A DNA stretch of 47,191 nucleotides, from the NCBI GenBank assembly GCA_020631435.1, contig JAHDHG010000001.1:1-47191 (forward strand), read 5' to 3'. The translations under genes and the position numbers were made by a program. The notes under the pieces were generated by a model. It saw only the letters and a list, made by a program, of their open reading frames with translations. It did no database searches and was not told the origin of the DNA. This stretch comes from Bacteriovoracaceae bacterium (GTDB taxonomy: Bacteria > Bdellovibrionota > Bacteriovoracia > Bacteriovoracales > Bacteriovoracaceae). How positions within the stretch are numbered: position 1 is the stretch's first letter; each line of letters begins with the position of its first letter. Positions 23,032-32,692 of the stretch are shown here, piece by piece.

Positions 23032-23272
23032 TATTTCTCCATAAAATTTGACTATAAATACTTAACTTTTTCCCTCGGATAAATCAATCAAATTGAGTCT
23101 TATGTAAGAAACAAATAAAAATAAATCGATATTAAGATCTTTTTATTCAAATTCTTGAACTGAAAAGTCAGAATGGACGCACTTTTGTAAGAATTATGGA
23201 GAGAATGCCCCAGTAGCGTTATAATATCTTGAATACTAAACACTAAAATTTAAACAAAGGATTGGGAGTAAA

Positions 23273-24166
23273 ATGAGTTCTCATTCTAGTAGAAAAACCG
23301 TAACAACTAAGACCAGATCAATGAAACCAAGAAGCCCTCTCTGGCTTTTACTTTGGTTAATCCTTGCTGCACTTTGGGCATTTCTCTCGGGGGATTGGTA
23401 TGTATGCGTTATAGGGAAACAATGTGTTCCACCAACCACCACAACAACGACAACCACCACCACAACAACTACTATGATTACAACTACTACTTTAAAGGTA
23501 GCTGTCCAGGAGTTTGAAAAATTTTATTTCAAAAATAATGACTCACAAGTTTACTTCACTGGAAATTTAAATTCTTCTTATCCAATAATTAAAGAACTTG
23601 CTGAAGAAGATAAAAAGTTAAAAATTGTTGGGCATTACTTTAATGGTGAAGACAAAGAAGTTGGTCTAGCTAGAGCAAGTTCTATAAAAGAAAAATTTAA
23701 ATCTTTTGATTGGTATCAATCAATATCTCTTGATGCTAAAAAAATTGAGTCTGATTTTAGTCCTTCAAAATATGATGAATTTTCATTGGCAAGTGAGCTT
23801 CTAGTTGAAAAAGAACTCGATACCTTCAGAATTGAAAATCAAACGATTTACTTTGGGAAAAATGCAAGCAATCCTCATGAGTCTAAAAAGATCATTGATT
23901 TTCTAAAATCCATTGCTTCACAAATAAAAGCTAAGAAAATCAAAAAAGTTCATGTTGTAGGCCATACTGATAGCGATGGACAAGCTGATAAAAACTATAG
24001 ACTTGGTTTCAAAAGGGCCAAAACGATTAGAAGTCTACTTATAAAGCAAGGGGTTAGCTCAAAGAAAGTTACTTTTGAGTCAAAAGGTGAAGCGAAACCT
24101 GCTGCATCTAATAAAACAAAAGAAGGTAAGGCCTTGAATAGAAGAGTGGAATTAATTACTAAATAG
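23273..24166 (+). CDS. Inner-membrane-anchored OmpA/MotB-like peptidoglycan-binding protein with a poly-Thr linker
   Basis: Basic N-terminus, one TM (PLWLLLWLILAALWAFL) and a T13-MI-T4 linker encoded by mixed ACC/ACA/ACG/ACT codons (23435-23491). The C-terminal VGHTDSDG…NYRLGFKRA…NRRVEL is the OmpA_C-like signature. Confidence 0.88.
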   Translation: MSSHSSRKTVTTKTRSMKPRSPLWLLLWLILAALWAFLSGDWYVCVIGKQCVPPTTTTTTTTTTTTTMITTTTLKVAVQEFEKFYFKNNDSQVYFTGNLNSSYPIIKELAEEDKKLKIVGHYFNGEDKEVGLARASSIKEKFKSFDWYQSISLDAKKIESDFSPSKYDEFSLASELLVEKELDTFRIENQTIYFGKNASNPHESKKIIDFLKSIASQIKAKKIKKVHVVGHTDSDGQADKNYRLGFKRAKTIRSLLIKQGVSSKKVTFESKGEAKPAASNKTKEGKALNRRVELITK

Positions 24167-24178
24167 TAAGGGGAATAT

Positions 24179-25963
24179 ATGTACGAACATTTTGATATTA
24201 TTAAAAACGGATCGCCTTTATTAGAGATACTTGCAATGCTAGCTGGTGCTGGTATTTTAGGCTATCTATTATGTTGGTGGTTTATGTCTCGGAAATACTC
24301 CAGCACGGAAGTAAGTTACGATGATGAACACATATTTTCTAAATTTAGAGATATAGAAGGTCATTTAAATCATTTTGCAACAAGAGATATGATTCCTTCA
24401 CTTCCAGATTTTTCTAAGTTTGCTCTTAAAAGTGATTTAAGTCCTGATATTCCATTACCTGATTTTTCTGTGTTTGCAAAAAAGTCTGATATTCCTAATG
24501 TTCCATCAGCTCCTGACTTATCTCTTTTTATGAAAAAATCAGATCTTAAAATGCCAGAGATGCCTGATTTGAGTGGGTTTGTAAGAAAATCTGACTTAGA
24601 TAATTTTGCAAGTAAAAGTGATATTCCTGAAATTAACTTAAGCGAATATGCCAAAAAATCTGAAATTCCTGAAGTAAGCAGTTTTGCAAGAAAATCAGAT
24701 TTACCTTCTATGCCTGATTTACCAAATATGAATTTATATGCTCTTAAATCAGATATCCCAAATATCGATCTTAGTTTATATGCTAAAAAATCTGATATTC
24801 CTGAGTTTAATAGTGATGACTATGCAAAGAAATCTGATATACCGCAAATAGATCTTTCACCATATGCAAAGAAAAGTGAAATGCCTGTAGCTCAAGACTT
24901 AACTCAATATGTAAGAAGGTCTGAATTACCTGCTCAACCAGATTTAAGTCCTTATGTGAGAAAATCTGAATTACCTGCTCAACCGGATCTAAGTTCTTAT
25001 GTGAAAAAATCTGAATTGCCAGCACAACCAGATCTAAGCTTATATGCTAAAAAGTTTGAGATCCCTGTCATGCCAAATCTTCCAAACTTTTCTGAGTTTG
25101 CAAAAAAATCTGAAGTTCCAAGTTATAACCTTGCTAACTATGCTCTAAAATCTGAACTTCCAAAAATTGATTTAAGTGAATATGCAAAAAAATCAGATTT
25201 ACCTGAAATTGATATGAGTGATTATGCCAAAAAATCTGATCTCCCAGAGATTGATTTAAGCGCTTATGCGAAAATAACTAATCTTCCAAGCTCACCAGAT
25301 CTTAGTTTTTATGCTAAAAAATCAGAAATTCCAGCTCAACCAGATCTTTCTAAGTATGCTAAGAAATCAGAAATACCGAATTCTCCAGACTTATCAAGAT
25401 ATGCCAGAAAATCAGAGATACCAAATCAACCAGACCTTTCTAAGTATGCTAAGAAATCTGATATTCCTAAAATACCAAGTTCTCCTGATTTAAAGCCTTA
25501 TGCTAAAAAGTCTGATCTTCCACAAGATCATAAAAAAGATGTAAAAGCTCTTTATGCAAAAATAGAAAAGTTAGAAAAACTTATTGAAAAGTTAAAAGCT
25601 AAACCTGCTCCTAAAAAAGTAGCTAAAAAGAAAGTTGTAAAAAAGAAAAAAGTGGCTAAAAAAGTTACTAAAAAACCAGTCATGAAATATGACAAAAGTG
25701 GCGTTCCAAAAACTAAAATTACAAACTTTCTATCTATTAAAAACATTAAGGCAGATAAAAGAAAGAAAGATGATCTTCAAAGAATTAAAGGTGTTGGACC
25801 ATTTATAGAGAAAAAAGTTAATGCTTTAGGTATATATACTTTTAAGCAGATTAAGAACTTAAATAAACAAGACATCGAAATCATTACTGATGCAATCAAG
25901 TTTTTCCCTGGTAGAATAAAACGAGATAAGTGGGTTAATCAAGCTAAAAAGCTCGACAAGTAA
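24179..25963 (+). CDS. Single-pass membrane protein with ~25 copies of a ~15-aa repeat ([DN]LSxYAKKS[DE][IL]P…), a Lys-rich segment and a C-terminal H3TH/HhH-like domain
   Basis: AAGGGG RBS, 12 nt after the OmpA-like stop. N-terminal TM LLEILAMLAGAGILGYLLCWWF followed by RK (N-out/C-in predicted). KPAPKKVAKKKVVKKKKVAKKVTKKP tract. C-terminus DDLQRIKGVGPFIEKKVNALGIYTFKQI…FPGRIKRDKWVNQAKKL. Confidence 0.88.
   Translation: MYEHFDIIKNGSPLLEILAMLAGAGILGYLLCWWFMSRKYSSTEVSYDDEHIFSKFRDIEGHLNHFATRDMIPSLPDFSKFALKSDLSPDIPLPDFSVFAKKSDIPNVPSAPDLSLFMKKSDLKMPEMPDLSGFVRKSDLDNFASKSDIPEINLSEYAKKSEIPEVSSFARKSDLPSMPDLPNMNLYALKSDIPNIDLSLYAKKSDIPEFNSDDYAKKSDIPQIDLSPYAKKSEMPVAQDLTQYVRRSELPAQPDLSPYVRKSELPAQPDLSSYVKKSELPAQPDLSLYAKKFEIPVMPNLPNFSEFAKKSEVPSYNLANYALKSELPKIDLSEYAKKSDLPEIDMSDYAKKSDLPEIDLSAYAKITNLPSSPDLSFYAKKSEIPAQPDLSKYAKKSEIPNSPDLSRYARKSEIPNQPDLSKYAKKSDIPKIPSSPDLKPYAKKSDLPQDHKKDVKALYAKIEKLEKLIEKLKAKPAPKKVAKKKVVKKKKVAKKVTKKPVMKYDKSGVPKTKITNFLSIKNIKADKRKKDDLQRIKGVGPFIEKKVNALGIYTFKQIKNLNKQDIEIITDAIKFFPGRIKRDKWVNQAKKLDK
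24386..25535 (+). repeat. In-frame tandem repeat array, mostly 42-48 nt units
   Basis: Three adjacent 45-nt units start at 24920, 24965 and 25010 (SELPAQPDLSxYVxK) and are near-identical. CCAGA(T/C)CTTTCTAAGTATGCTAAGAAATC recurs at ~25341 and ~25431. Confidence 0.9.
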
Positions 25964-25993
25964 TCTCAAGATTTAAAAAATTTTTATTACATT

Positions 25994-26020
25994 AAGGCCT
26001 AATTTTTAGGCCTTTTTTTT
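25994..26020 (+). terminator. Rho-independent terminator
   Basis: AAGGCCT-AATTTTT-AGGCCTT hairpin followed by T-run (26013-26020). Confidence 0.8.
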
Positions 26021-26084
26021 CGCCTAGAAATAGAAAGATATTCCCCTGATATAATTAAAACGTAATCAATCTAAGGATTTAAGT

Positions 26085-27512
26085 ATGTATAACAATTTTA
26101 ATATTTTTCACCATGGATCTTCTCTTCAAGAAATATTATACATGCTCGCTATCGCTGGCATACTTGGGTATTTATTATGTTGGTTGTTTGCTACTAGAAA
26201 ATTAAGAGAGTATTGGGCAAGGATCAATCTTAATAAGCATGAAATTGAAAAACTTCAAAATGCTAAGAATTATGATGATTTATTAACTACTCTTTCAACC
26301 AAGATTGCAACATTTGAAAAAAAATTGGCAAAACTTAAGGTGCCGACATTAGATCAATTAGATCTATCTGATTATGTTACTAAAGATATGCTGCCTAAAA
26401 AACAAGATCTTTCAAACTATGTAACTAAAGATATGCTTCCCAAAAAACAAGATCTTTCAAATTATGCTACCAAGGATATGATTCCTAAAAAAATGGATCT
26501 ATCGAACTATGCAACAAAAGATATGATCCCGAAAATTGATCATCTTAAAAGTTTTATTAAAAAAGATGAACTTCACAATCTCTTACCTAAAAATAATAAT
26601 TCAGACTTAGATCTTTCTCAATTTGTAAAAAAAGATGAATTAAATAAAGATGAAATTGATACTAGTCAATTTGCTTTAAAAAGTGATTTGCAAAAGTATG
26701 CTTTATCAAATCAACTTCAAAAATTTGCATCTGTAGATAAGCTGACTTCATTCGTGAAACTAACTGACTTGAAAAATCATTTTAAAAACTATTCTCATGA
26801 AAGTGCTGACATAGTAAAAAAAGAAGATCTTTCTCATTACTTAAGAAAATCTGAGGTTCCCGAAATTCCAAGCATGGATAATTTCGCTAAAAAAGATGAC
26901 CTTGCTCATTATTTAAGAAAATCTGAATTACCGAAAACTGATCTCTCACAGTTTGCAAAGAAAGAAGAATTATCTCACTTCTTAAGAAAATCTGAAATGC
27001 CCAAAAGTGATGAAAGTAAATTTGTGAAAAAAGATGACCTTGCACCCTATTTAAAAAAATCAGAGCTTCCACAAAGTCCTGACTTTTCGGGTTATGCAAA
27101 AAAAGAAGATCTTAATCCATTAAGAGAAAAAATCGAAACAGTAGATAGTGAGAACTCAAAACAAGATGAAAACATTGAAGAATTAAAAGCTATTTTAAGT
27201 GAAATTCCTAAGCCAAAAAAGAAAGTTGTAGAGCTAGATAAAAGAGGAATTCCAAAGAGTACAATTCTTCATCTTCTTTCAATTAAAGACGTGGAATATG
27301 ACAAAAGAAAAAGAGATGATCTTCAAGAAATTAAAGGTATTGGTCCATTTATAGAAAAAAAGGTTAACGCTCTTGGGATTTATACATTTAAGCAAATTTC
27401 ACTACTAAACGACGAAGATATAAGTGTTATTACAGAAGCAATTAAATTTTTTCCAGGAAGAATCATCAGGGATGATTGGGTCGGGCAAGCTGAAGAGCTT
27501 GCCAAGGCATAA
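26085..27512 (+). CDS. Paralog of 24179-25963: same N-terminal TM anchor, different ~15-aa repeats (DLSNYVTKDMLPKKQ; DLSHYLRKSE[LV]P), same C-terminal H3TH/HhH-like domain
   Basis: The N-terminus MYNNFNIFHHGSSLQEILYMLAIAGILGYLLCWLF aligns with MYEHFDIIKNGSPLLEILAMLAGAGILGYLLCWWF. The C-terminal ~90 aa are highly similar (DDLQEIKGIGPFIEKKVNALGIYTFKQI…FPGRIIRDDWVGQAEEL). Confidence 0.88.
   Translation: MYNNFNIFHHGSSLQEILYMLAIAGILGYLLCWLFATRKLREYWARINLNKHEIEKLQNAKNYDDLLTTLSTKIATFEKKLAKLKVPTLDQLDLSDYVTKDMLPKKQDLSNYVTKDMLPKKQDLSNYATKDMIPKKMDLSNYATKDMIPKIDHLKSFIKKDELHNLLPKNNNSDLDLSQFVKKDELNKDEIDTSQFALKSDLQKYALSNQLQKFASVDKLTSFVKLTDLKNHFKNYSHESADIVKKEDLSHYLRKSEVPEIPSMDNFAKKDDLAHYLRKSELPKTDLSQFAKKEELSHFLRKSEMPKSDESKFVKKDDLAPYLKKSELPQSPDFSGYAKKEDLNPLREKIETVDSENSKQDENIEELKAILSEIPKPKKKVVELDKRGIPKSTILHLLSIKDVEYDKRKRDDLQEIKGIGPFIEKKVNALGIYTFKQISLLNDEDISVITEAIKFFPGRIIRDDWVGQAEELAKA
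26361..26540 (+). repeat. Four consecutive in-frame 45-nt units (DLS[DN]Y[VA]TKDM[LI]PK…), with more degenerate repeats continuing to ~27120
   Basis: Read directly from DNA and translation. Units begin at aa 93, 108, 123 and 138. Confidence 0.9.
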
Positions 27513-27710
27513 CTACATTTTCAGAAAAGACTGATCAAATCCAAAATTTCTTAAAACACTTTCTTTGATATTTAAATTATTTTGAAGGGTAACCTCTTCT
27601 TGAGAAAGAAATTTGTTTTGATTAGTTAACTCAACTTGAGAATTCTGATGCATATCAAAATTCTGCGAATTAAAAATTGTCTTATTAACATCACTAAAAT
27701 TTGTTTCCAT
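27513..27710 (-). CDS. Small Asn/Gln-rich hypothetical protein (65 aa from the ATG at 27710; the track ORF extends to a TTG at 27794)
   Basis: The ATG at 27710 is preceded by GGAGTTTGAA (a good SD at 6-nt spacing), whereas the TTG at 27794 has no SD. No family recognised, so coding status is uncertain. Confidence 0.4.
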   Translation of the reverse strand: METNFSDVNKTIFNSQNFDMHQNSQVELTNQNKFLSQEEVTLQNNLNIKESVLRNFGFDQSFLKM

Positions 27711-27812
27711 TTCAAACTCCAAACACTTAATTATTGATAACAAGGTGGTGCCATTATGACAATCTTTTAGGTGTAAGACCTGTAAGTTTTTCAAAAGAGA
27801 AATGGAATAAGT

Positions 27813-29141
27813 TTAAGTTCTAGCTCTATAGCAAGAAATTATTCGAGGGAATACCAAGTCATATCCTGATGTAAAAAAGCCAAGATCATCAGAAGATGAG
27901 CCTGTTACAGACTTCATAGTGTTATGAAAATCATCCCATAAAACTCCGTTTTGGTCTTCAAATGGATTTGAGCTAAGTTCTCCACCTCTTTGCAGGTAAG
28001 ATATGTCTTGCAAGCAAGATGAGTATGAAATCCATTGATTTTCATCAATACCGATCTGATGCGTATGGTCAAAACCAAGCATGTGCCCAATCTCATGAGA
28101 GTAAACTGTTCCTTTCTCGTTTCCAATTTTTGAATATTCAGAAACAACTGTAGATTCTTTGCTTTCTGGAACTCTATTAAGTTTCGCAATTCCTGCAACA
28201 TTTCCTTGAATTTCTTTTACAAAAACTAAAGAGACCTCTCCTACTTTTCCATATTTATCCAAGATGTTTTCAAAATCATTACAAGATAGATCTCTCGGGT
28301 CACAGTGAACATGAACCAAATTATCTTCAACTTCTATCGCTTCTGAGATTTCAAATTGAAAGAAAGATGAACTTCCATCTCTATTTATCTTTTCATTTAA
28401 AGTTTTTAAAACAAGATCAGCATCCGCACTCACATCTTCAGATAAAGTTGTTTGAGAGCTATTTACAAAAACTATCCTAATAGGAATTTTGTTACTATCA
28501 ATTTCTGAAATAGTTTTATTAAAATGAAGTTTAGCAGAAGAAGTTCTTCCAGTGTTATCTGCAATGGTATAAGAAATTTCAAATGAAGACTCAAGATCAA
28601 AATTTTCATCAAAATTTACTTTAATTCTATTGTTTTCGATAGTTGTGCTTACTCCCTCTATCGATTCAACTTCGTTGATAGTTATAGGATCCCCATCTAC
28701 ATCAATATCGTTTTCTAAAACGTTGACTAAAATTTCATCATTTGATTCTAAATTAACTAGATCATCTGATGAATTTGGGTTGTCTGCTACTGCTCTCACT
28801 TCTAAGATCAATTCGGAAACTACAATCTCATTTGTTGAAAGATTCTCCCAGAACACTCTTACCAAATCAGCTCCTGAATAGTTATGATGAGGGTGATATA
28901 TAAATTTGCCTCCATTTTCTTGAATTTCAATATTGGAATGAACACCATCCATCTTAATCAGCTTATGAGTTTTAGAAAGTGGTAAGTCTCTAAAAACTAT
29001 CTCTTTAGAAAAATTTACTTCAATGTCTTCAGTGGTCACAACCTTGGTTGTTAAGAGGCCATCAGAGTTTGTATTTCCGGGATCTTCTCCATCTGTCGTT
29101 ATTGAGCATGATAAAAATAATGTAAGTAGAAGTATTCTCAC
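27813..29141 (-). CDS. Lipoprotein metzincin-type zinc metallopeptidase with an N-terminal cadherin-like/VCBS-type domain
   Basis: MRILLLTLFLSCS (lipobox LFLSC, GTG start). NVLENDIDVDGDPITI is typical of cadherin-like bacterial adhesion repeats. HEIGHMLGFDHTH matches HExxHxxGxxH. Confidence 0.85.
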   Translation of the reverse strand: MRILLLTLFLSCSITTDGEDPGNTNSDGLLTTKVVTTEDIEVNFSKEIVFRDLPLSKTHKLIKMDGVHSNIEIQENGGKFIYHPHHNYSGADLVRVFWENLSTNEIVVSELILEVRAVADNPNSSDDLVNLESNDEILVNVLENDIDVDGDPITINEVESIEGVSTTIENNRIKVNFDENFDLESSFEISYTIADNTGRTSSAKLHFNKTISEIDSNKIPIRIVFVNSSQTTLSEDVSADADLVLKTLNEKINRDGSSSFFQFEISEAIEVEDNLVHVHCDPRDLSCNDFENILDKYGKVGEVSLVFVKEIQGNVAGIAKLNRVPESKESTVVSEYSKIGNEKGTVYSHEIGHMLGFDHTHQIGIDENQWISYSSCLQDISYLQRGGELSSNPFEDQNGVLWDDFHNTMKSVTGSSSDDLGFFTSGYDLVFPRIISCYRART

Positions 29142-29263: not shown

Positions 29264-30733
29264 TTAAAGCATTGAAGCTGTAAAGTTAAATGGATAGACT
29301 ACAGTTGCTGGTCCACCTTTAGGCCCTGGTGCAAAGCTAATCTTATTAAGAACTCCTGTTAAGCAACCATGAAGCTTTTGATTATTTAATTGAGATTTTA
29401 CTATTCTAGTACCACTAACTCGACCACCGGGAGCAATCTTCCAGCTAATATTAACAATCCCTGCAAGGTTTGGATTTGATAGTAATGACTTTTCATAACA
29501 ATAAGTAAACTTACTCATATGCTTAGCTATAATTTTTCTAATTAAGCTTTGAGACATCTTCCCACCTTTAACAGACATCGATTGTGGCCCTAAGTGAGAG
29601 AGTCCTCCTCCTGAACCACCTGCAGCATGAAGACCAGATACACTTACTTTACCCTGAACATAGTTATAAGATCTTCCTCCCTCAATACCATTAATCTCAC
29701 CATTAGATAAGACTCTACCAGATGCAACAGTTCTAGATCCTTTTGTATTAATCGCACCACTTGATGATCCAAGAACGTTTTTACCCGTTACTTTTGCTAG
29801 AAAGTTTGTACCTTTAACATTTTTTGCTCCAGCAAGACCTTTTCCTCCACCAACAGCAAATCCTCTACCGCCTTTTCCACCTGGTGGGATATTAAAATCC
29901 CCTTTACCTTTAGTAAGGAAGTTAAGTGAGTTAGCAACTTTTGCTTTTGTTTGTGCCAATCTCTTTGCCTGTGCCCTTGCAGCTGTATTACCTTTTGCAT
30001 TTGGATTTCTTGGACCTGTACCACCTCTTTTAGGAGGACCTTTTTCAACAACAAGTCTCTTCATTGGTCTCTTATCATTTACTACTTTTACAGTTCCTTT
30101 AGTCTTATTCGGACTTGGCCTTTTTGATTTTTTCTCACTAAGTAGATTTGATCTTTTCTTTGGCTTCTTCTGAGGTTGAATTTTTCTTTTCGGTTTTGGC
30201 TTAGGTTTCTCAGCAACTTTTGGCTTAGGTCTCGTAGTTGTAGTCGGAGCTAGAGTTGTTGTTGTCGCTTTTACAACTATCTTCTTTTCTTCGGATAATT
30301 TCTTTAATAACTTCTCAACTCTTTTTTCACTCTCTTTCTCTTCTTTGACTTCAGCAACTGGAGAAGAGCTATCTGATCCTGTCGGTAACATCATTGCAAT
30401 CGCTAAATTTAAAAAAACAGAGAATGCAACATAAGCATACATTCCATAATCAAGTGCGTATAAAAAATCTTCATAAAGATCAAAGTAAATATCTGTCCCA
30501 TCTTTATGCTTCATTCTTAGAGAAGAACCTATATTGATACTTCTAACTTTTTTCTCGTCTCCGTAAACATCATACTGACCATTTTTTCCAATCTTCTTGA
30601 AAAAATAGTTTGTTCCCTTAATATTTATCTTGAATTGATTACTATCAGTAACAGAGAACTGTTTATCTAGTAACCTTAGACTATCGGATTTTCTCTTATA
30701 CTTAACATTTAATAATTTTTTCTTTTTTAACAT
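29264..30733 (-). CDS. TonB-like bitopic protein with an AgmX/PglI-type C-terminal domain (GltG/GltJ-like candidate)
   Basis: A ~95-aa cytoplasmic N-domain, one TM (MYAYVAFSVFLNLAIAMML), a Pro/Lys spacer (KPKVAEKPKPKPKRKIQPQKKPKK) and a Gly-rich tract. The C-terminus …FTYCYEKSLLSNPNLAGIVNISWKI…GRV…HGCLTGVL…F…VVYPFNF is TonB_C-like with the two-Cys pattern I associate with myxobacterial AgmX/PglI tails. Confidence 0.7.
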   Translation of the reverse strand: MLKKKKLLNVKYKRKSDSLRLLDKQFSVTDSNQFKINIKGTNYFFKKIGKNGQYDVYGDEKKVRSINIGSSLRMKHKDGTDIYFDLYEDFLYALDYGMYAYVAFSVFLNLAIAMMLPTGSDSSSPVAEVKEEKESEKRVEKLLKKLSEEKKIVVKATTTTLAPTTTTRPKPKVAEKPKPKPKRKIQPQKKPKKRSNLLSEKKSKRPSPNKTKGTVKVVNDKRPMKRLVVEKGPPKRGGTGPRNPNAKGNTAARAQAKRLAQTKAKVANSLNFLTKGKGDFNIPPGGKGGRGFAVGGGKGLAGAKNVKGTNFLAKVTGKNVLGSSSGAINTKGSRTVASGRVLSNGEINGIEGGRSYNYVQGKVSVSGLHAAGGSGGGLSHLGPQSMSVKGGKMSQSLIRKIIAKHMSKFTYCYEKSLLSNPNLAGIVNISWKIAPGGRVSGTRIVKSQLNNQKLHGCLTGVLNKISFAPGPKGGPATVVYPFNFTASML

Positions 30734-30734
30734 T

Positions 30735-30956
30735 TTAAAAACTCTGTGATTTTATTTCTTTTTTATAATTTTTTCTTAATTTAATGAAATCAATTGCCTC
30801 TCTCTCATTCTGTAGTTTCAATAGCATATTAAGATTTCTGGATTGACCTCGAACCTCAATAGGTTTATCACTTGGCGCATCTAGTGCACTTAGCCCTGAA
30901 CCCGTTTGCTGAGCAAAAACTGATAATGAAAATAAAAAGCAAAAAATTAACTTCAA
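30735..30956 (-). CDS. Small secreted/periplasmic protein (73 aa) embedded in the motor operon
   Basis: Signal-like MKLIFCFLFSLSVFAQQ. There is a 4-nt overlap with the upstream ExbD-like gene and a 1-nt gap to the downstream gene. Confidence 0.6.
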   Translation of the reverse strand: MKLIFCFLFSLSVFAQQTGSGLSALDAPSDKPIEVRGQSRNLNMLLKLQNEREAIDFIKLRKNYKKEIKSQSF

Positions 30957-31441
30957 TTCTTTTCCTTATTCATTGAAACAAAATCAACGTAGTTCAAGCT
31001 CAACTCAGAAGCACCTCTAATAATTTCATCTATATAAAGATAAGGTACGTCTTTATCTGCTTGAATTGTTAACTTTATTTTATCATCTTTTTTATTTGAA
31101 GCTATGTTGCGGTCAAGATGCTCTTTTCTTAAGTCTTCTAATTCTTCTTTCACCTGAACAAGAATTTGCTCTCTTTCGCCATCAAAATTAGAAAAATTAA
31201 TGATTTCCCCTTTTCCAACTTTGATTTGGCTCTCACCTATGACCATAGTAATTCCAAAACTTGACTGAGCTGCTTTACCTTCAACAGTTGGCAGTTCAAT
31301 AAAACTTGGAATTTCTTTCTCTTCATTAACTTCTGAATAATTCACGAGTAAAAAAATCAGGATAATTGTAAGTGCATCCATCAAGGATGTAATATTCAAT
31401 TTCTCTGGCTTTTTTCTTCCTCTTCCTGAAAACTTTCCCAT
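30953..31441 (-). CDS. ExbD/TolR-family protein (AglQ/AglS-like), conserved TM Asp present
   Basis: KLNITSLMDALTIILIFLLV matches the ExbD/TolR N-terminal block (…N-[IV]-T-P-L-I-D-V…), retaining the Asp (D22). 162 aa. Confidence 0.8.
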   Translation of the reverse strand: MGKFSGRGRKKPEKLNITSLMDALTIILIFLLVNYSEVNEEKEIPSFIELPTVEGKAAQSSFGITMVIGESQIKVGKGEIINFSNFDGEREQILVQVKEELEDLRKEHLDRNIASNKKDDKIKLTIQADKDVPYLYIDEIIRGASELSLNYVDFVSMNKEKN

Positions 31442-31448
31442 AATTCCT

Positions 31449-31985
31449 CTAATCTATATTCATTTCAGTTAATGCTGGAAGCATCACAACTTTAAACTTA
31501 AACTCTTTTCCTTCATCTTCTGACGCCAATCCTCTTAGAGGTTTTTTCAAACCTTCAAGCACTGGAATAAGCTTTCCGTAAACAACGTCATCTTTTGTCG
31601 TCACCAGAACAGTTTCAAGTTTTGAATATTTATCTTTAATTTTTTCTAACAGTCCTAAAATTTTCTCAGCACCTTCTAAAGTAGAATCTGCTTTTCTTTT
31701 TAAAACAACTGCTCCATTTTCTTCATCAAGAATATTTAATCGAGTAATTTCTTGATCGATATAAACTTGAGCCGTTACCATTTTTTCTTTATTTACTTTT
31801 TCCGGAATAGGCTGATCTTCACTAGGAGGAGAACTTGCTCCTGGGACTGAAGTTTCAACAACTCTAAAGTGATAAAACGCTAAGTTTGATAAGAGTAATG
31901 GAATAATGATGATCAAAAGACTCATGAAAGGTAGGATTGCATCTACTTCTTCCATTTCTTTTTTTACAAACTTTTGTTTTTTCAT
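31449..31985 (-). CDS. ExbD/TolR-family protein paralog; the TM Asp position is apparently occupied by Ser
   Basis: VDAILPFMSLLIIIIPLLL aligns with the ExbD block with Pro conserved, but has FMS where LID is expected. 178 aa with a periplasmic domain of ExbD size. Confidence 0.7.
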   Translation of the reverse strand: MKKQKFVKKEMEEVDAILPFMSLLIIIIPLLLSNLAFYHFRVVETSVPGASSPPSEDQPIPEKVNKEKMVTAQVYIDQEITRLNILDEENGAVVLKRKADSTLEGAEKILGLLEKIKDKYSKLETVLVTTKDDVVYGKLIPVLEGLKKPLRGLASEDEGKEFKFKVVMLPALTEMNID

Positions 31986-32013
31986 TCTTTCTTCCTTAAA
32001 AAAGCTTTAACTA

Positions 32014-32692
32014 TTAACCGTGTCTTTTAAATTCTTTATACTCTTGAAACTGAGTTTCACTGTTCACTGTCTCTGCATGAGGCTTGTGAACTACTAAGTG
32101 AGTCATCTCTGAAACAACTTCATCATACTTTTTAAGAATTCTATCTTCTTTAGAACTTAAAATTGTGTACATAATGATACATGGAATTGCGAAGACCGAA
32201 TGCCGTCGTATTCATAGCTGTCGAAATACCTGCAGCAAGAAGAGCAGCTTTATCAGCACCACTTGCAGCACCTAAAGATGAGAATGATTGAACAAGTCCA
32301 GCAATTGTTCCAAGTAATCCAATTAGAGTTGAAACGTTACCAATCATATTAATATAATTTGTCCTTGCTTGAATCCCTGGTAATACTTTTTGAAATTCAA
32401 TATCACTCGCTGACTCAATTGCATCTTGAGATTTATTTGCATTATAAAGAACTGCAGCGATAACTTTTGCTAATGGATGTGATGTTGTTAAACATGCATT
32501 ATAAGCTTCTCTTAATCTTCCATCTTTAACCATTGACTTTACTCTCGCAAAAAATTTATTCTTTACATGATAGTTCATAAATAAAGCAACAAATCTCTCG
32601 ATTCCAAATGCTACAGCAGCAACTAATAAGCAAGTAATGGCGATCATATAACCATCTGCAAATAAAAAATCTATAATCTTACCCAAATTCAT
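32014..32692 (-). pseudogene. MotA/TolQ/ExbB-family proton channel (AglR-like) interrupted by a frameshift near 32190-32192
   Basis: Track ORF 32150-32692 ends …GISTAMNTTAFGL then reads out of frame (RNSMYHYVHNFKF*). Skipping the base at 32191 gives …TTAFGL-AIPCIIMYTILSSKEDRILKKYDEVV…KRHG* (stop at 32014-32016). That restores the canonical GL..AIP TM3 block and a 225-aa TolQ-sized protein. Confidence 0.85.

Follow-up and report, generated by a model that had tools for sequence, protein, structure and literature searches.

A widespread gene pair encoding an OmpA-like protein and an anchored rod protein, a candidate cell wall-anchored scaffold at the inner membrane of Bacteriovoracaceae and Bacteroidota

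Introduction

Few bacterial structures are known that couple the wall mechanically to the interior of the cell. Functionally, the closest analogues of a cytoplasmic scaffold fixed to the wall are the HubP/FimV/TspA polar landmark proteins, in which, according to PMC12918733, a periplasmic peptidoglycan-binding domain and a single transmembrane (TM) helix are combined with a cytoplasmic region that is repetitive and very long and with a conserved head at the C-terminus. Here we describe a three-gene module at positions 23,273 to 27,512 of a 47,191-nucleotide stretch of DNA from a Bacteriovoracaceae bacterium (GenBank assembly GCA_020631435.1, contig JAHDHG010000001.1, positions 1 to 47,191), referred to below as the window. 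It encodes an OmpA-like protein predicted to sit in the inner membrane (gene 1) and two paralogous, membrane-anchored rod proteins that end in a helix-hairpin-helix (HhH) head (genes 2 and 3). We rate the pair formed by the OmpA-like gene and an anchor-rod-HhH gene as a real, widespread and uncharacterised module, a variant of peptidoglycan-anchored membrane scaffolds whose mechanism we infer. It is a clean candidate for a link between wall and cell interior, also in predatory Bacteriovoracaceae, and we tentatively read it as a two-component, cell wall-anchored tether across the inner membrane.

The module differs from each of the described systems that it resembles. HubP and FimV unite LysM and the FimV TPR head in one polypeptide, whereas here the OmpA-like binder and the HhH-headed rod are separate proteins, presumably joined through their TM helices; the module proteins matched no LysM or FimV domain in Pfam or NCBIfam and showed no sequence homology to HubP/FimV. 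Gene 1 has the same layout as MotB, PomB, TagL and YiaD (cytoplasmic N-terminus, one TM helix, linker, periplasmic OmpA_C domain, GHTD and R motifs), but unlike that group it has neither a MotA-like partner nor a TM aspartate, and it carries a Cx5C motif and a degenerate additional OmpA-like domain, its partner being a single-pass rod protein. The alphaproteobacterial proteins NuoE, L21, S2, PhaH and Urf1 share a homologous head; these proteins are themselves soluble complex subunits or two-helix hairpin anchors in photosynthetic complexes and, unlike the module here, have no OmpA partner and no long rod. ComEA likewise combines an N-terminal anchor with a C-terminal HhH domain, but its head is periplasmic and basic, whereas the head described here is predicted to be cytoplasmic, is carried on a long rod and in most family members is acidic. 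Phage tail-fibre-like proteins and GH25 lysins share the gene 2 repeat, but gene 2 is membrane-anchored and has no phage context and no receptor-binding or lysin domain. The histone H1-like Lys/Ala/Pro tracts of PhaF, PhaM and AlgP, which bind DNA non-specifically, have a counterpart in the KAKPAPKKVAKKK-type tract beside the gene 2 head. Literature searches found no published description of an OmpA plus anchor-rod-HhH pair, in agreement with the preliminary description of this stretch, which knew of no similar system.

Results

Pairing of the OmpA-like gene with the anchored rod gene

The module consists of three genes on the same strand, given here with their lengths in amino acids (aa):

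23273..24166, + strand: gene 1, open reading frame (ORF) of 297 aa, predicted inner membrane-anchored OmpA-like peptidoglycan binder
24179..25963, + strand: gene 2, ORF of 594 aa, with anchor, fibre repeats, short coiled coil, Lys-rich tract and basic HhH head
26085..27512, + strand: gene 3, ORF of 475 aa, paralogue of gene 2 with an acidic HhH head

Our scan of other genomes used one genome per species; the best 80 of 385 confirmed loci were kept, and 79 of these had a callable gene. At 63 of the 79 species-representative loci, an OmpA-domain gene lay directly upstream of the anchor-rod-HhH gene on the same strand. The paired loci came from Bacteriovoracaceae and several Bacteroidota orders and comprised most of the Bacteroidota loci examined; those without a pair were incomplete contigs, six giant surface proteins of MGII archaea and a few odd cases. 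When the neighbouring genes were clustered all against all, the OmpA gene was the sole conserved neighbour.

The sequences of the two partners carried recurrent signatures as well. A Cx4-6C motif, typically [WY]YVCxIKxxC, immediately followed the TM helix in 58 of 64 OmpA partners, and the anchors across loci showed an acidic residue near the outer end of the TM helix, a conserved Gly and a Trp. All of these are present at the locus described here, where the genes are adjacent and co-directional, the first TM helix is followed by a CxnC motif and the anchor has the acidic residue, Gly and Trp.

The whole three-gene block with its flanks was kept in three Bacteriovoracaceae metagenome-assembled genomes (MAGs), which taken alone shows only close relatedness. 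The pair extends much further. In distant Bacteroidales, a gene for a 175-186-aa OmpA protein lies 4-22 nt upstream of a gene encoding the same type of anchor, a coiled coil and three heads. The arrangement seen here, one OmpA gene followed by two rod genes, recurs at seven Cytophagales loci (Spirosoma, Rudanella, Catalinimonas and an uncultured Cytophagales MAG). A GC-rich lineage has the anchor, DLSxYAxKSDIP repeats, coiled coil and head, with a BON+OmpA gene upstream in one case and none in another. Co-occurrence of the OmpA-like and anchor-repeat-HhH genes thus holds both in close relatives and across phyla. Because the adjacency of OmpA and rod genes holds across phyla, the conserved unit is the two-gene pair, and gene 3 is a lineage-specific duplication.

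At two Bacteroidales loci (L005 7192-10110 and L008 7326-13233), chemotaxis genes (a CheB/CheR fusion, or CheW-CheR-CheW-MCP-CheA) come after the pair, and ahead of it stands a gene for a conserved 295-306-aa protein without a Pfam match. Neither the chemotaxis genes nor the 295-306-aa protein was conserved beside the pair outside that Bacteroidales group.

Gene 1 as predicted peptidoglycan-binding partner

The following features were assigned in gene 1:

23273..23392, + strand: predicted basic cytoplasmic tail (aa 1-21, 6 K/R) and TM helix 1 (aa 22-40), from hydropathy and flank charges
23405..23425, + strand: juxtamembrane Cys motif C45-x5-C51 (DWYVCVIGKQC), predicted periplasmic and common to partners across phyla
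23435..23491, + strand: T13-MI-T4 poly-threonine linker, aa 55-73, with mixed ACN codons
23510..23752, + strand: probable degenerate first OmpA-like domain, aa ~80-160, IVGHYFNGEDKEVGLARASSI (weak HMM match at 110-144; self-BLAST E value of 0.017)
23849..24163, + strand: canonical OmpA_C-like domain, aa 193-297, with GHTD and LGFKRA motifs, from profile matches

The basic N-terminus, single TM helix, T13-MI-T4 linker and OmpA_C-like domain had already been noted in the preliminary description, and all were confirmed. Residues 22-40 (PLWLLLWLILAALWAFLSG) form the sole hydrophobic segment, with none after it, and contain no acidic residue. Pfam OmpA (PF00691) matched residues 205-290 with an E value of 6e-19 and 68.6 bits against a cut-off of 27.2. 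The Asp and Arg residues predicted to contact peptidoglycan lie in the motifs VVGHTDSDG and LGFKRAK, and a GHTD-like motif was present in 61 of the 64 partners. In relatives of gene 1 the linker is rich in Pro, Thr, Ala and Val in place of poly-threonine, and 38 of the 64 partners have two to four OmpA-like domains. Residues ~80-160 of gene 1 look like a second, decayed domain of this kind, the signal of which is weak here and clear in relatives.

Topology of the rod proteins

Genes 2 and 3 are laid out as follows:

24218..24286, + strand: gene 2 anchor TM helix, aa 14-36, LLEILAMLAGAGILGYLLCWWFM, with the conserved acidic residue, Gly and Trp
24407..25564, + strand: gene 2 repeat rod, ~25 units of 12-18 aa with the consensus DLSxYAKKS[DE][IL]P(xxP), from protein and DNA repeat analysis
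25565..25738, + strand: gene 2 short helical segment and Lys/Ala/Val/Pro tract, aa 463-520, net charge +18
25739..25960, + strand: gene 2 C-terminal HhH-type domain, aa 521-594; its 64-aa core (aa 531-594) has a net charge of +7
26124..26192, + strand: gene 3 anchor TM helix, aa 14-36, with five K/R in the C-terminal flank and none in the N-terminal flank
26196..26345, + strand: gene 3 juxtamembrane helical segment, likely a coiled coil, aa 38-87 (AlphaFold2 [AF2] helices 11-59 and 63-83)
26346..27140, + strand: gene 3 repeat rod, DLSxY[AV]TKDM[IL]PKK units followed by 23-aa double units, from protein and DNA repeats
27237..27509, + strand: gene 3 C-terminal HhH-type domain with conserved pre-domain segment, aa 385-475; core net charge -4

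The two proteins are paralogues, aligned by BLASTP across the repeat and C-terminal regions with an E value of 5e-77, while a second alignment (E value of 4e-39) takes in the N-terminal anchor, which is nearly the same in both. Identity over their last ~105 residues is 68%. Every element that had been noted on first inspection, namely, the shared anchor, the ~15-aa repeats, the Lys tract of gene 2 and the conserved C-terminus, was recovered. The Lys/Ala/Val/Pro tract of gene 2 spans approximately residues 473-500, and of the two paralogues only gene 2 carries this KAKPAPKKVAKKKVVKKKKVAKK tract.

Hydropathy revealed a single hydrophobic segment in each protein, near residues 14-36, and the charges around it point to an external N-terminus. 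Among 77 non-redundant anchors, the C-terminal flank contained on average 3.66 K/R and the N-terminal flank 0.52 (p = 2e-14), with the C-terminal flank being the richer in 76 of the 77. Two Cytophagales genomes further encode natural fusion proteins (L068 4440-5216 and L082 4620-5459) composed of TM1, a short loop, the anchor TM2, a coiled coil and an HhH head. The fused TM1 is of the OmpA-partner type (…WYMFSIKGL), without cysteines and without an OmpA domain, and TM2 reads …IIEILLL…G…W; no OmpA gene was found near either fusion gene. Since an OmpA domain must be periplasmic, the fusions place the N-terminus of the anchor outside and the rod inside, and by Rosetta-stone logic they suggest that the TM1 and TM2 helices associate. 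NuoE, S2, L21 and the phasin, which bear the same head domain, are cytoplasmic proteins. Periplasmic repeats are unlikely because of the positive-inside bias, the cytoplasmic location of these other head proteins and the TM1-TM2 fusions. The N-out/C-in orientation proposed earlier from the positive-inside rule is therefore supported in 76 of 77 anchors and by the two fusions, and the rods of genes 2 and 3 probably reach into the cytoplasm.

A length-variable spacer

The segment between anchor and head is built from different material in different lineages. In Bacteroidota it is an alpha-helical coiled coil of ~100 to ~750 residues. In Bacteriovoracaceae it is a DLSxYAKKS[DE][IL]P repeat, the copy number of which varies among relatives to yield proteins of 546-604 aa. 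Both forms bear out the earlier proposal of an extensible spacer. As a coiled coil and an unrelated repeat rod can occupy the same place between the same anchor and head, the spacer probably serves mainly to give length, and its natural variation (~100-750 coiled-coil residues, or repeat number) constitutes a built-in test of a "ruler" function.

The tandem 14-15-aa units of genes 2 and 3 could also be seen in the DNA, with TRF periods of 45 and 42 nt. The DLSxYAKKSDIP repeat has no Pfam name and gave only weak DUF7864 matches. In searches against PHROG, the gene 2 repeat matched phrog_19741 (E value of 3e-29), phrog_30808 (3e-22) and the tail-fibre family phrog_6049 (4e-11), and gene 2-type repeats occurred in >1,100 proteins, including phage tail-fibre-like proteins, GH25 lysins and secreted Bacteroidales proteins. 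The repeat is probably a generic fibre, rod or spacer module that is oligomeric. In gene 3, the AF2 model reached a predicted confidence (pLDDT) of 82-86 at residues ~21-40, falling to 54-62 by residues 41-80.

Examples of the DLSxYAKKSDIP repeat outside the anchor-rod-HhH family (P0121, P0199, P0134, P0156 and P0233) include signal-peptide-bearing Bacteroidales proteins, a Limosilactobacillus protein with a tail-fibre PHROG match and proteins with a GH25 lysozyme domain. We considered and rejected a prophage remnant, as the matches to phage families are confined to the repeat region and the locus is a chromosomal one with synteny in relatives; a phage tail fibre was rejected likewise, the PHROG matches being limited to the repeats and the neighbouring genes being chromosomal and syntenic in relatives.

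The C-terminal head belongs to the NuoE-extension family

The C-termini of genes 2 and 3 matched the C-terminal part of the NCBIfam NuoE model NF009040 with E values of 1e-20 and 5.5e-17, the stronger match covering positions 216-384 of the 400 in the model. With 74.8 bits against a cut-off of 514, however, neither protein qualifies as NuoE proper. Further NCBIfam models matched by the head were those for long-form L21, S2 and the phasin PhaH. A search of Protein Data Bank (PDB) sequences with the head yielded long residue-by-residue matches to 9wqv_a (E value of 2.5e-13) and 8yy9_O (1.1e-12), which are Urf1/"protein-3h" of Rhodovulum and "protein-O" of Dinoroseobacter RC-LH1. Both cryo-electron microscopy structures resolve the membrane part alone, leaving the head domain unresolved; in Urf1 it is joined to the membrane anchor by a flexible linker. 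By these matches, the head is assigned to the COG3743/PRK12373-type module, homologous to the C-terminal domain of NuoE, L21, S2, PhaH and Urf1/protein-O, as the preliminary description had proposed.

At the level of fold, single gene 2 and gene 3 domains scored below the Pfam HHH_5 cut-off (15.9 and 13.4 bits against 27). Multi-copy homologues reached 93-120 bits for HHH_5 and also matched IMS_HHH, HHH and SAM_BAF. Because such tandem-copy homologues exceed the HHH_5, IMS_HHH and HHH thresholds, the head is most likely a member of the HhH superfamily. Its hairpins are conserved, the first as G[IV]G (GVGP in gene 2, GIGP in gene 3) and the second as PGRI. The more specific label of a FEN-1-like H3TH domain given earlier was not borne out: it originates in COG/IMG annotation, Pfam gives generic HhH families with no 5'-3' exonuclease match and no nuclease domain, and FEN-1 was absent from the Foldseek matches listed.

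The head family is large, comprising 13,568 clusters at 50% identity (E ≤ 1e-3), and a TM helix stands at the start of 91 of the 150 best representatives. Paired proteins have one to three heads, and membrane-anchored relatives up to 25-26 in tandem. A ligand for the head, once found, would explain the module together with the C-terminal extensions on the complex I subunit NuoE, the ribosomal proteins S2 and L21 and the RC-LH1 subunit Urf1.

Several unusual carriers of the domain were encountered. The giant proteins P0240 (3033 aa), P0241 (3115 aa) and P0242 (2280 aa) contain 20-26 tandem heads, P0240 starting with a TM anchor; their layout recalls the multi-HhH arrays known from topoisomerase V. 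Some Chitinophagales proteins have a second HhH-type domain beyond the main head, as in a 983-aa protein (L019 2520-5471) in which a different domain of this type (DDLKKVEGIGPKIEQLL…STWPKQAQMA) occupies residues ~895-960. In MGII/Poseidoniales archaea (L036, L039, L048, L054, L073 and L084), proteins of 820-1,940 aa have two C-terminal heads and one strong TM segment, with no OmpA partner beside them at the six loci; surface proteins there apparently use the head as their cytoplasmic tail.

Proposed mechanism and alternatives

In the wall-anchored tether that we tentatively propose, gene 1 would span the inner membrane once, its N-terminus facing the cytoplasm, and bind peptidoglycan via its OmpA-like domain(s). 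Genes 2 and 3 would insert with their short N-terminus outside, the conserved TM helix packing against that of gene 1. The remainder would enter the cytoplasm as a rod-like and probably oligomeric spacer of the fibre-type repeat, ending in an HhH binding head, and a cytoplasmic ligand would be held at a set distance from a fixed point of the wall. If DNA is the ligand, gene 2 would be a wall-to-nucleoid tether. Of this model, the analysis establishes which domains are encoded, the recurrent gene pairing, the topology as predicted from sequence and the variability of the spacer.

The nature of the ligand is suggested by head charge, in which the two paralogous heads are opposite (+7 in gene 2, -4 in gene 3). 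The 40 aa preceding the gene 2 head carry another +13. This basic character is conserved in gene 2 orthologues, the heads of which range from +6 to +7, and those of gene 3 orthologues from 0 to +1; in Spirosoma-type duplicates both heads are acidic. The Lys tract is confined to gene 2 orthologues; neither gene 3 nor the Bacteroidota relatives have it. The HhH ancestry of the head, the conservation of both hairpins and tandem heads of up to 25 copies point to a polyanion as well. Because its basic head is preceded by a Lys-rich H1-like tract, gene 2 most likely binds DNA or another polyanion. DNA is thus a likely ligand of gene 2 only, which is where the idea of a nucleoid tether would apply; the gene 3 head may bind a protein partner or gene 2 itself, and contacts of head with head or of tract with head are conceivable.

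Several observations weigh against this tether. Of the heads in related loci, 84% are net acidic (median -3), as is that of gene 3 at -4. Acidic heads are unusual for a non-specific DNA binder and resemble the AR (HhH)2 domain of NusA, the acidic (HhH)2 domains of this kind being known to bind proteins. Two recent structural papers call the function of the head domain unknown or obscure. The AF2 model of the head, with six helical elements, reached only a moderate pLDDT of 72.8, and Foldseek found no significant neighbour for it in PDB (best E value of 0.75). The best local fits, all non-significant, were the N-terminal (HhH)2 domain of RadA/Rad51 (root mean square deviation of 1.7 Å over 60 columns), NusA AR, the HhH of Y-family polymerases and SAM domains, and the comparison does not discriminate DNA binding from protein binding. 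The full-length AF2 monomer did not model the gene 3 repeat rod (pLDDT of ~40), and since the fibre is probably oligomeric a monomer model is uninformative on it. Finally, secreted Bacteroidales proteins contain the same repeat type, so the repeats themselves are compatible with either compartment.

The main alternative, which we regard as possible, though less probable than the tether, is a HubP/FimV-like cortical or polar landmark scaffold of the same architecture, the head of which recruits protein clients or self-associates rather than binding DNA. The acidity of the head in 84% of relatives and in gene 3, and the restriction of a basic head and tract to gene 2 orthologues, suggest that it may bind protein instead. 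The protein-binding AR2 domain of NusA and SAM domains were among its nearest local structural matches, and the pair stands beside chemotaxis genes in two Bacteroidales contexts. HubP and FimV themselves combine a periplasmic peptidoglycan-binding domain, one TM helix, a long acidic cytoplasmic region and a conserved C-terminal domain, according to PMC12918733. However, with LysM and FimV domains missing, the resemblance is one of analogy only, and the chemotaxis neighbours are not conserved across loci. The strongly basic head and tract of gene 2 also speak against such a scaffold, and for arrays of up to 25 tandem heads a polymer would be a more fitting ligand than a single client.

Returning to the wall-anchored tether, its TM-TM complex, the oligomerization of its rod, its ligand and its cellular role are the parts that we infer. 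A bolder extension, which we consider rather doubtful, would make it a bacterial counterpart of LINC-type bridges: an inner membrane complex fixed to the wall, with rods of genetically set length coupling the wall to the nucleoid or a large cytoplasmic assembly. The heads of NuoE, S2, L21, the phasins and Urf1 in Alphaproteobacteria would then act as a general address by which abundant complexes dock onto the same cytoplasmic target.

The opposite topology, in which repeats and head are periplasmic and form a ComEA-type DNA receptor or a periplasmic fibre beside the OmpA-like protein, seems very unlikely. ComEA is indeed a membrane-anchored periplasmic HhH DNA binder, and the repeat type recurs in signal-peptide-bearing secreted proteins and GH25 lysins. 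However, the positive-inside bias of 76/77 anchors contradicts this arrangement, the TM1-TM2 fusions put the N-terminus of the anchor on the OmpA side, and the head otherwise occurs on cytoplasmic proteins. In the MGII proteins, moreover, the domain follows the TM segment after a giant, presumably extracellular N-terminal region without any other strong hydrophobic segment.

Hardly credible to us is a ToxR/ToxS-like pair, in which the OmpA-like protein would sense the envelope and the anchored protein would bind promoters as a membrane-tethered transcription regulator. Such a pair would likewise consist of a single-pass protein with a cytoplasmic domain of nucleic-acid-binding type and a co-transcribed periplasmic partner, but HhH domains bind DNA through its backbone and are not sequence-specific, ToxR-like regulators feature neither tandem heads nor rods of 100-750 aa, and the periplasmic part of the anchor amounts to only ~13 residues. 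An ion-driven stator or energy transducer of the MotB/ExbD type, or a Zorya-like defence system, is just as improbable despite the similarity of the OmpA domain to MotB and ZorB models and a TonB-ExbB-ExbD cluster 3-5 kb downstream: no MotA/ExbB/ZorA-like multi-TM partner is present in the operon or conserved beside the pair, the gene 1 TM helix has no membrane-embedded acidic residue, and the Ton cluster is on the opposite strand and conserved only in close relatives. A stator subunit was accordingly rejected for want of a MotA-like partner and a protonatable TM residue, and a known defence system because PADLOC gave gene 1 only generic OmpA-domain similarity to MotB/ZorB and matched nothing in genes 2 and 3.

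Transcription signals and neighbouring genes

The following signals accompany the three genes:

23197..23225, + strand: candidate sigma-70-like promoter 5' of gene 1, TGGAGA-17-TATAAT, from a consensus scan (10/12 matches)
24167..24178, + strand: junction of genes 1 and 2, TAG followed by the 12 nt taaggggaatat, including an AAGGGG Shine-Dalgarno sequence, and then ATG (direct reading)
25994..26022, + strand: intrinsic terminator 3' of gene 2, with a 9-bp GC-containing hairpin and a T-run at 25994-26014
26047..26055, + strand: candidate extended -10 element TGATATAAT 5' of gene 3, read directly from the sequence

The three ORFs, the 12-nt junction with its AAGGGG Shine-Dalgarno sequence and the terminator ahead of gene 3 were all confirmed on rereading the sequence. 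Given the 12-nt junction, the terminator after gene 2 and TGATATAAT before gene 3, genes 1 and 2 look co-transcribed and gene 3 is probably transcribed from its own start. The promoter 5' of gene 1 is a weak candidate, as promoter-like sites were fewer in the region than in its shuffles.

Downstream of gene 3, the neighbouring genes lie on the minus strand. A small convergent ORF (27513-27794, 93 aa as listed) follows directly; in three Bacteriovoracaceae relatives a gene of 67-68 aa occupies the matching position (L001 9298-9501, L002 9241-9447 and L004 9310-9516), and these counterparts had no Pfam match. The next gene (27813-29141) encodes a 442-aa protein with a HEIGHMLGFDH zinc-metalloprotease-like motif, the orthologues of which match Cadherin_4/5 and Big_9; it is probably a secreted or surface protease. 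Positions 29264-32692 hold a gene for a 489-aa Lys/Pro-rich protein, possibly TonB-like by its composition and position, without a family match, and then ORFs with orthologues matching ExbD (PF02472) and MotA_ExbB (PF01618). This Ton-like cluster is conserved in close relatives and, by neighbour clustering, is not associated with the pair elsewhere. At its other end, the window opens within a bacterial 16S rRNA gene on the minus strand (Rfam SSU_rRNA_bacteria, 306 bits): positions 1-426 carry the 5' part of this gene, the remainder lying beyond the window.

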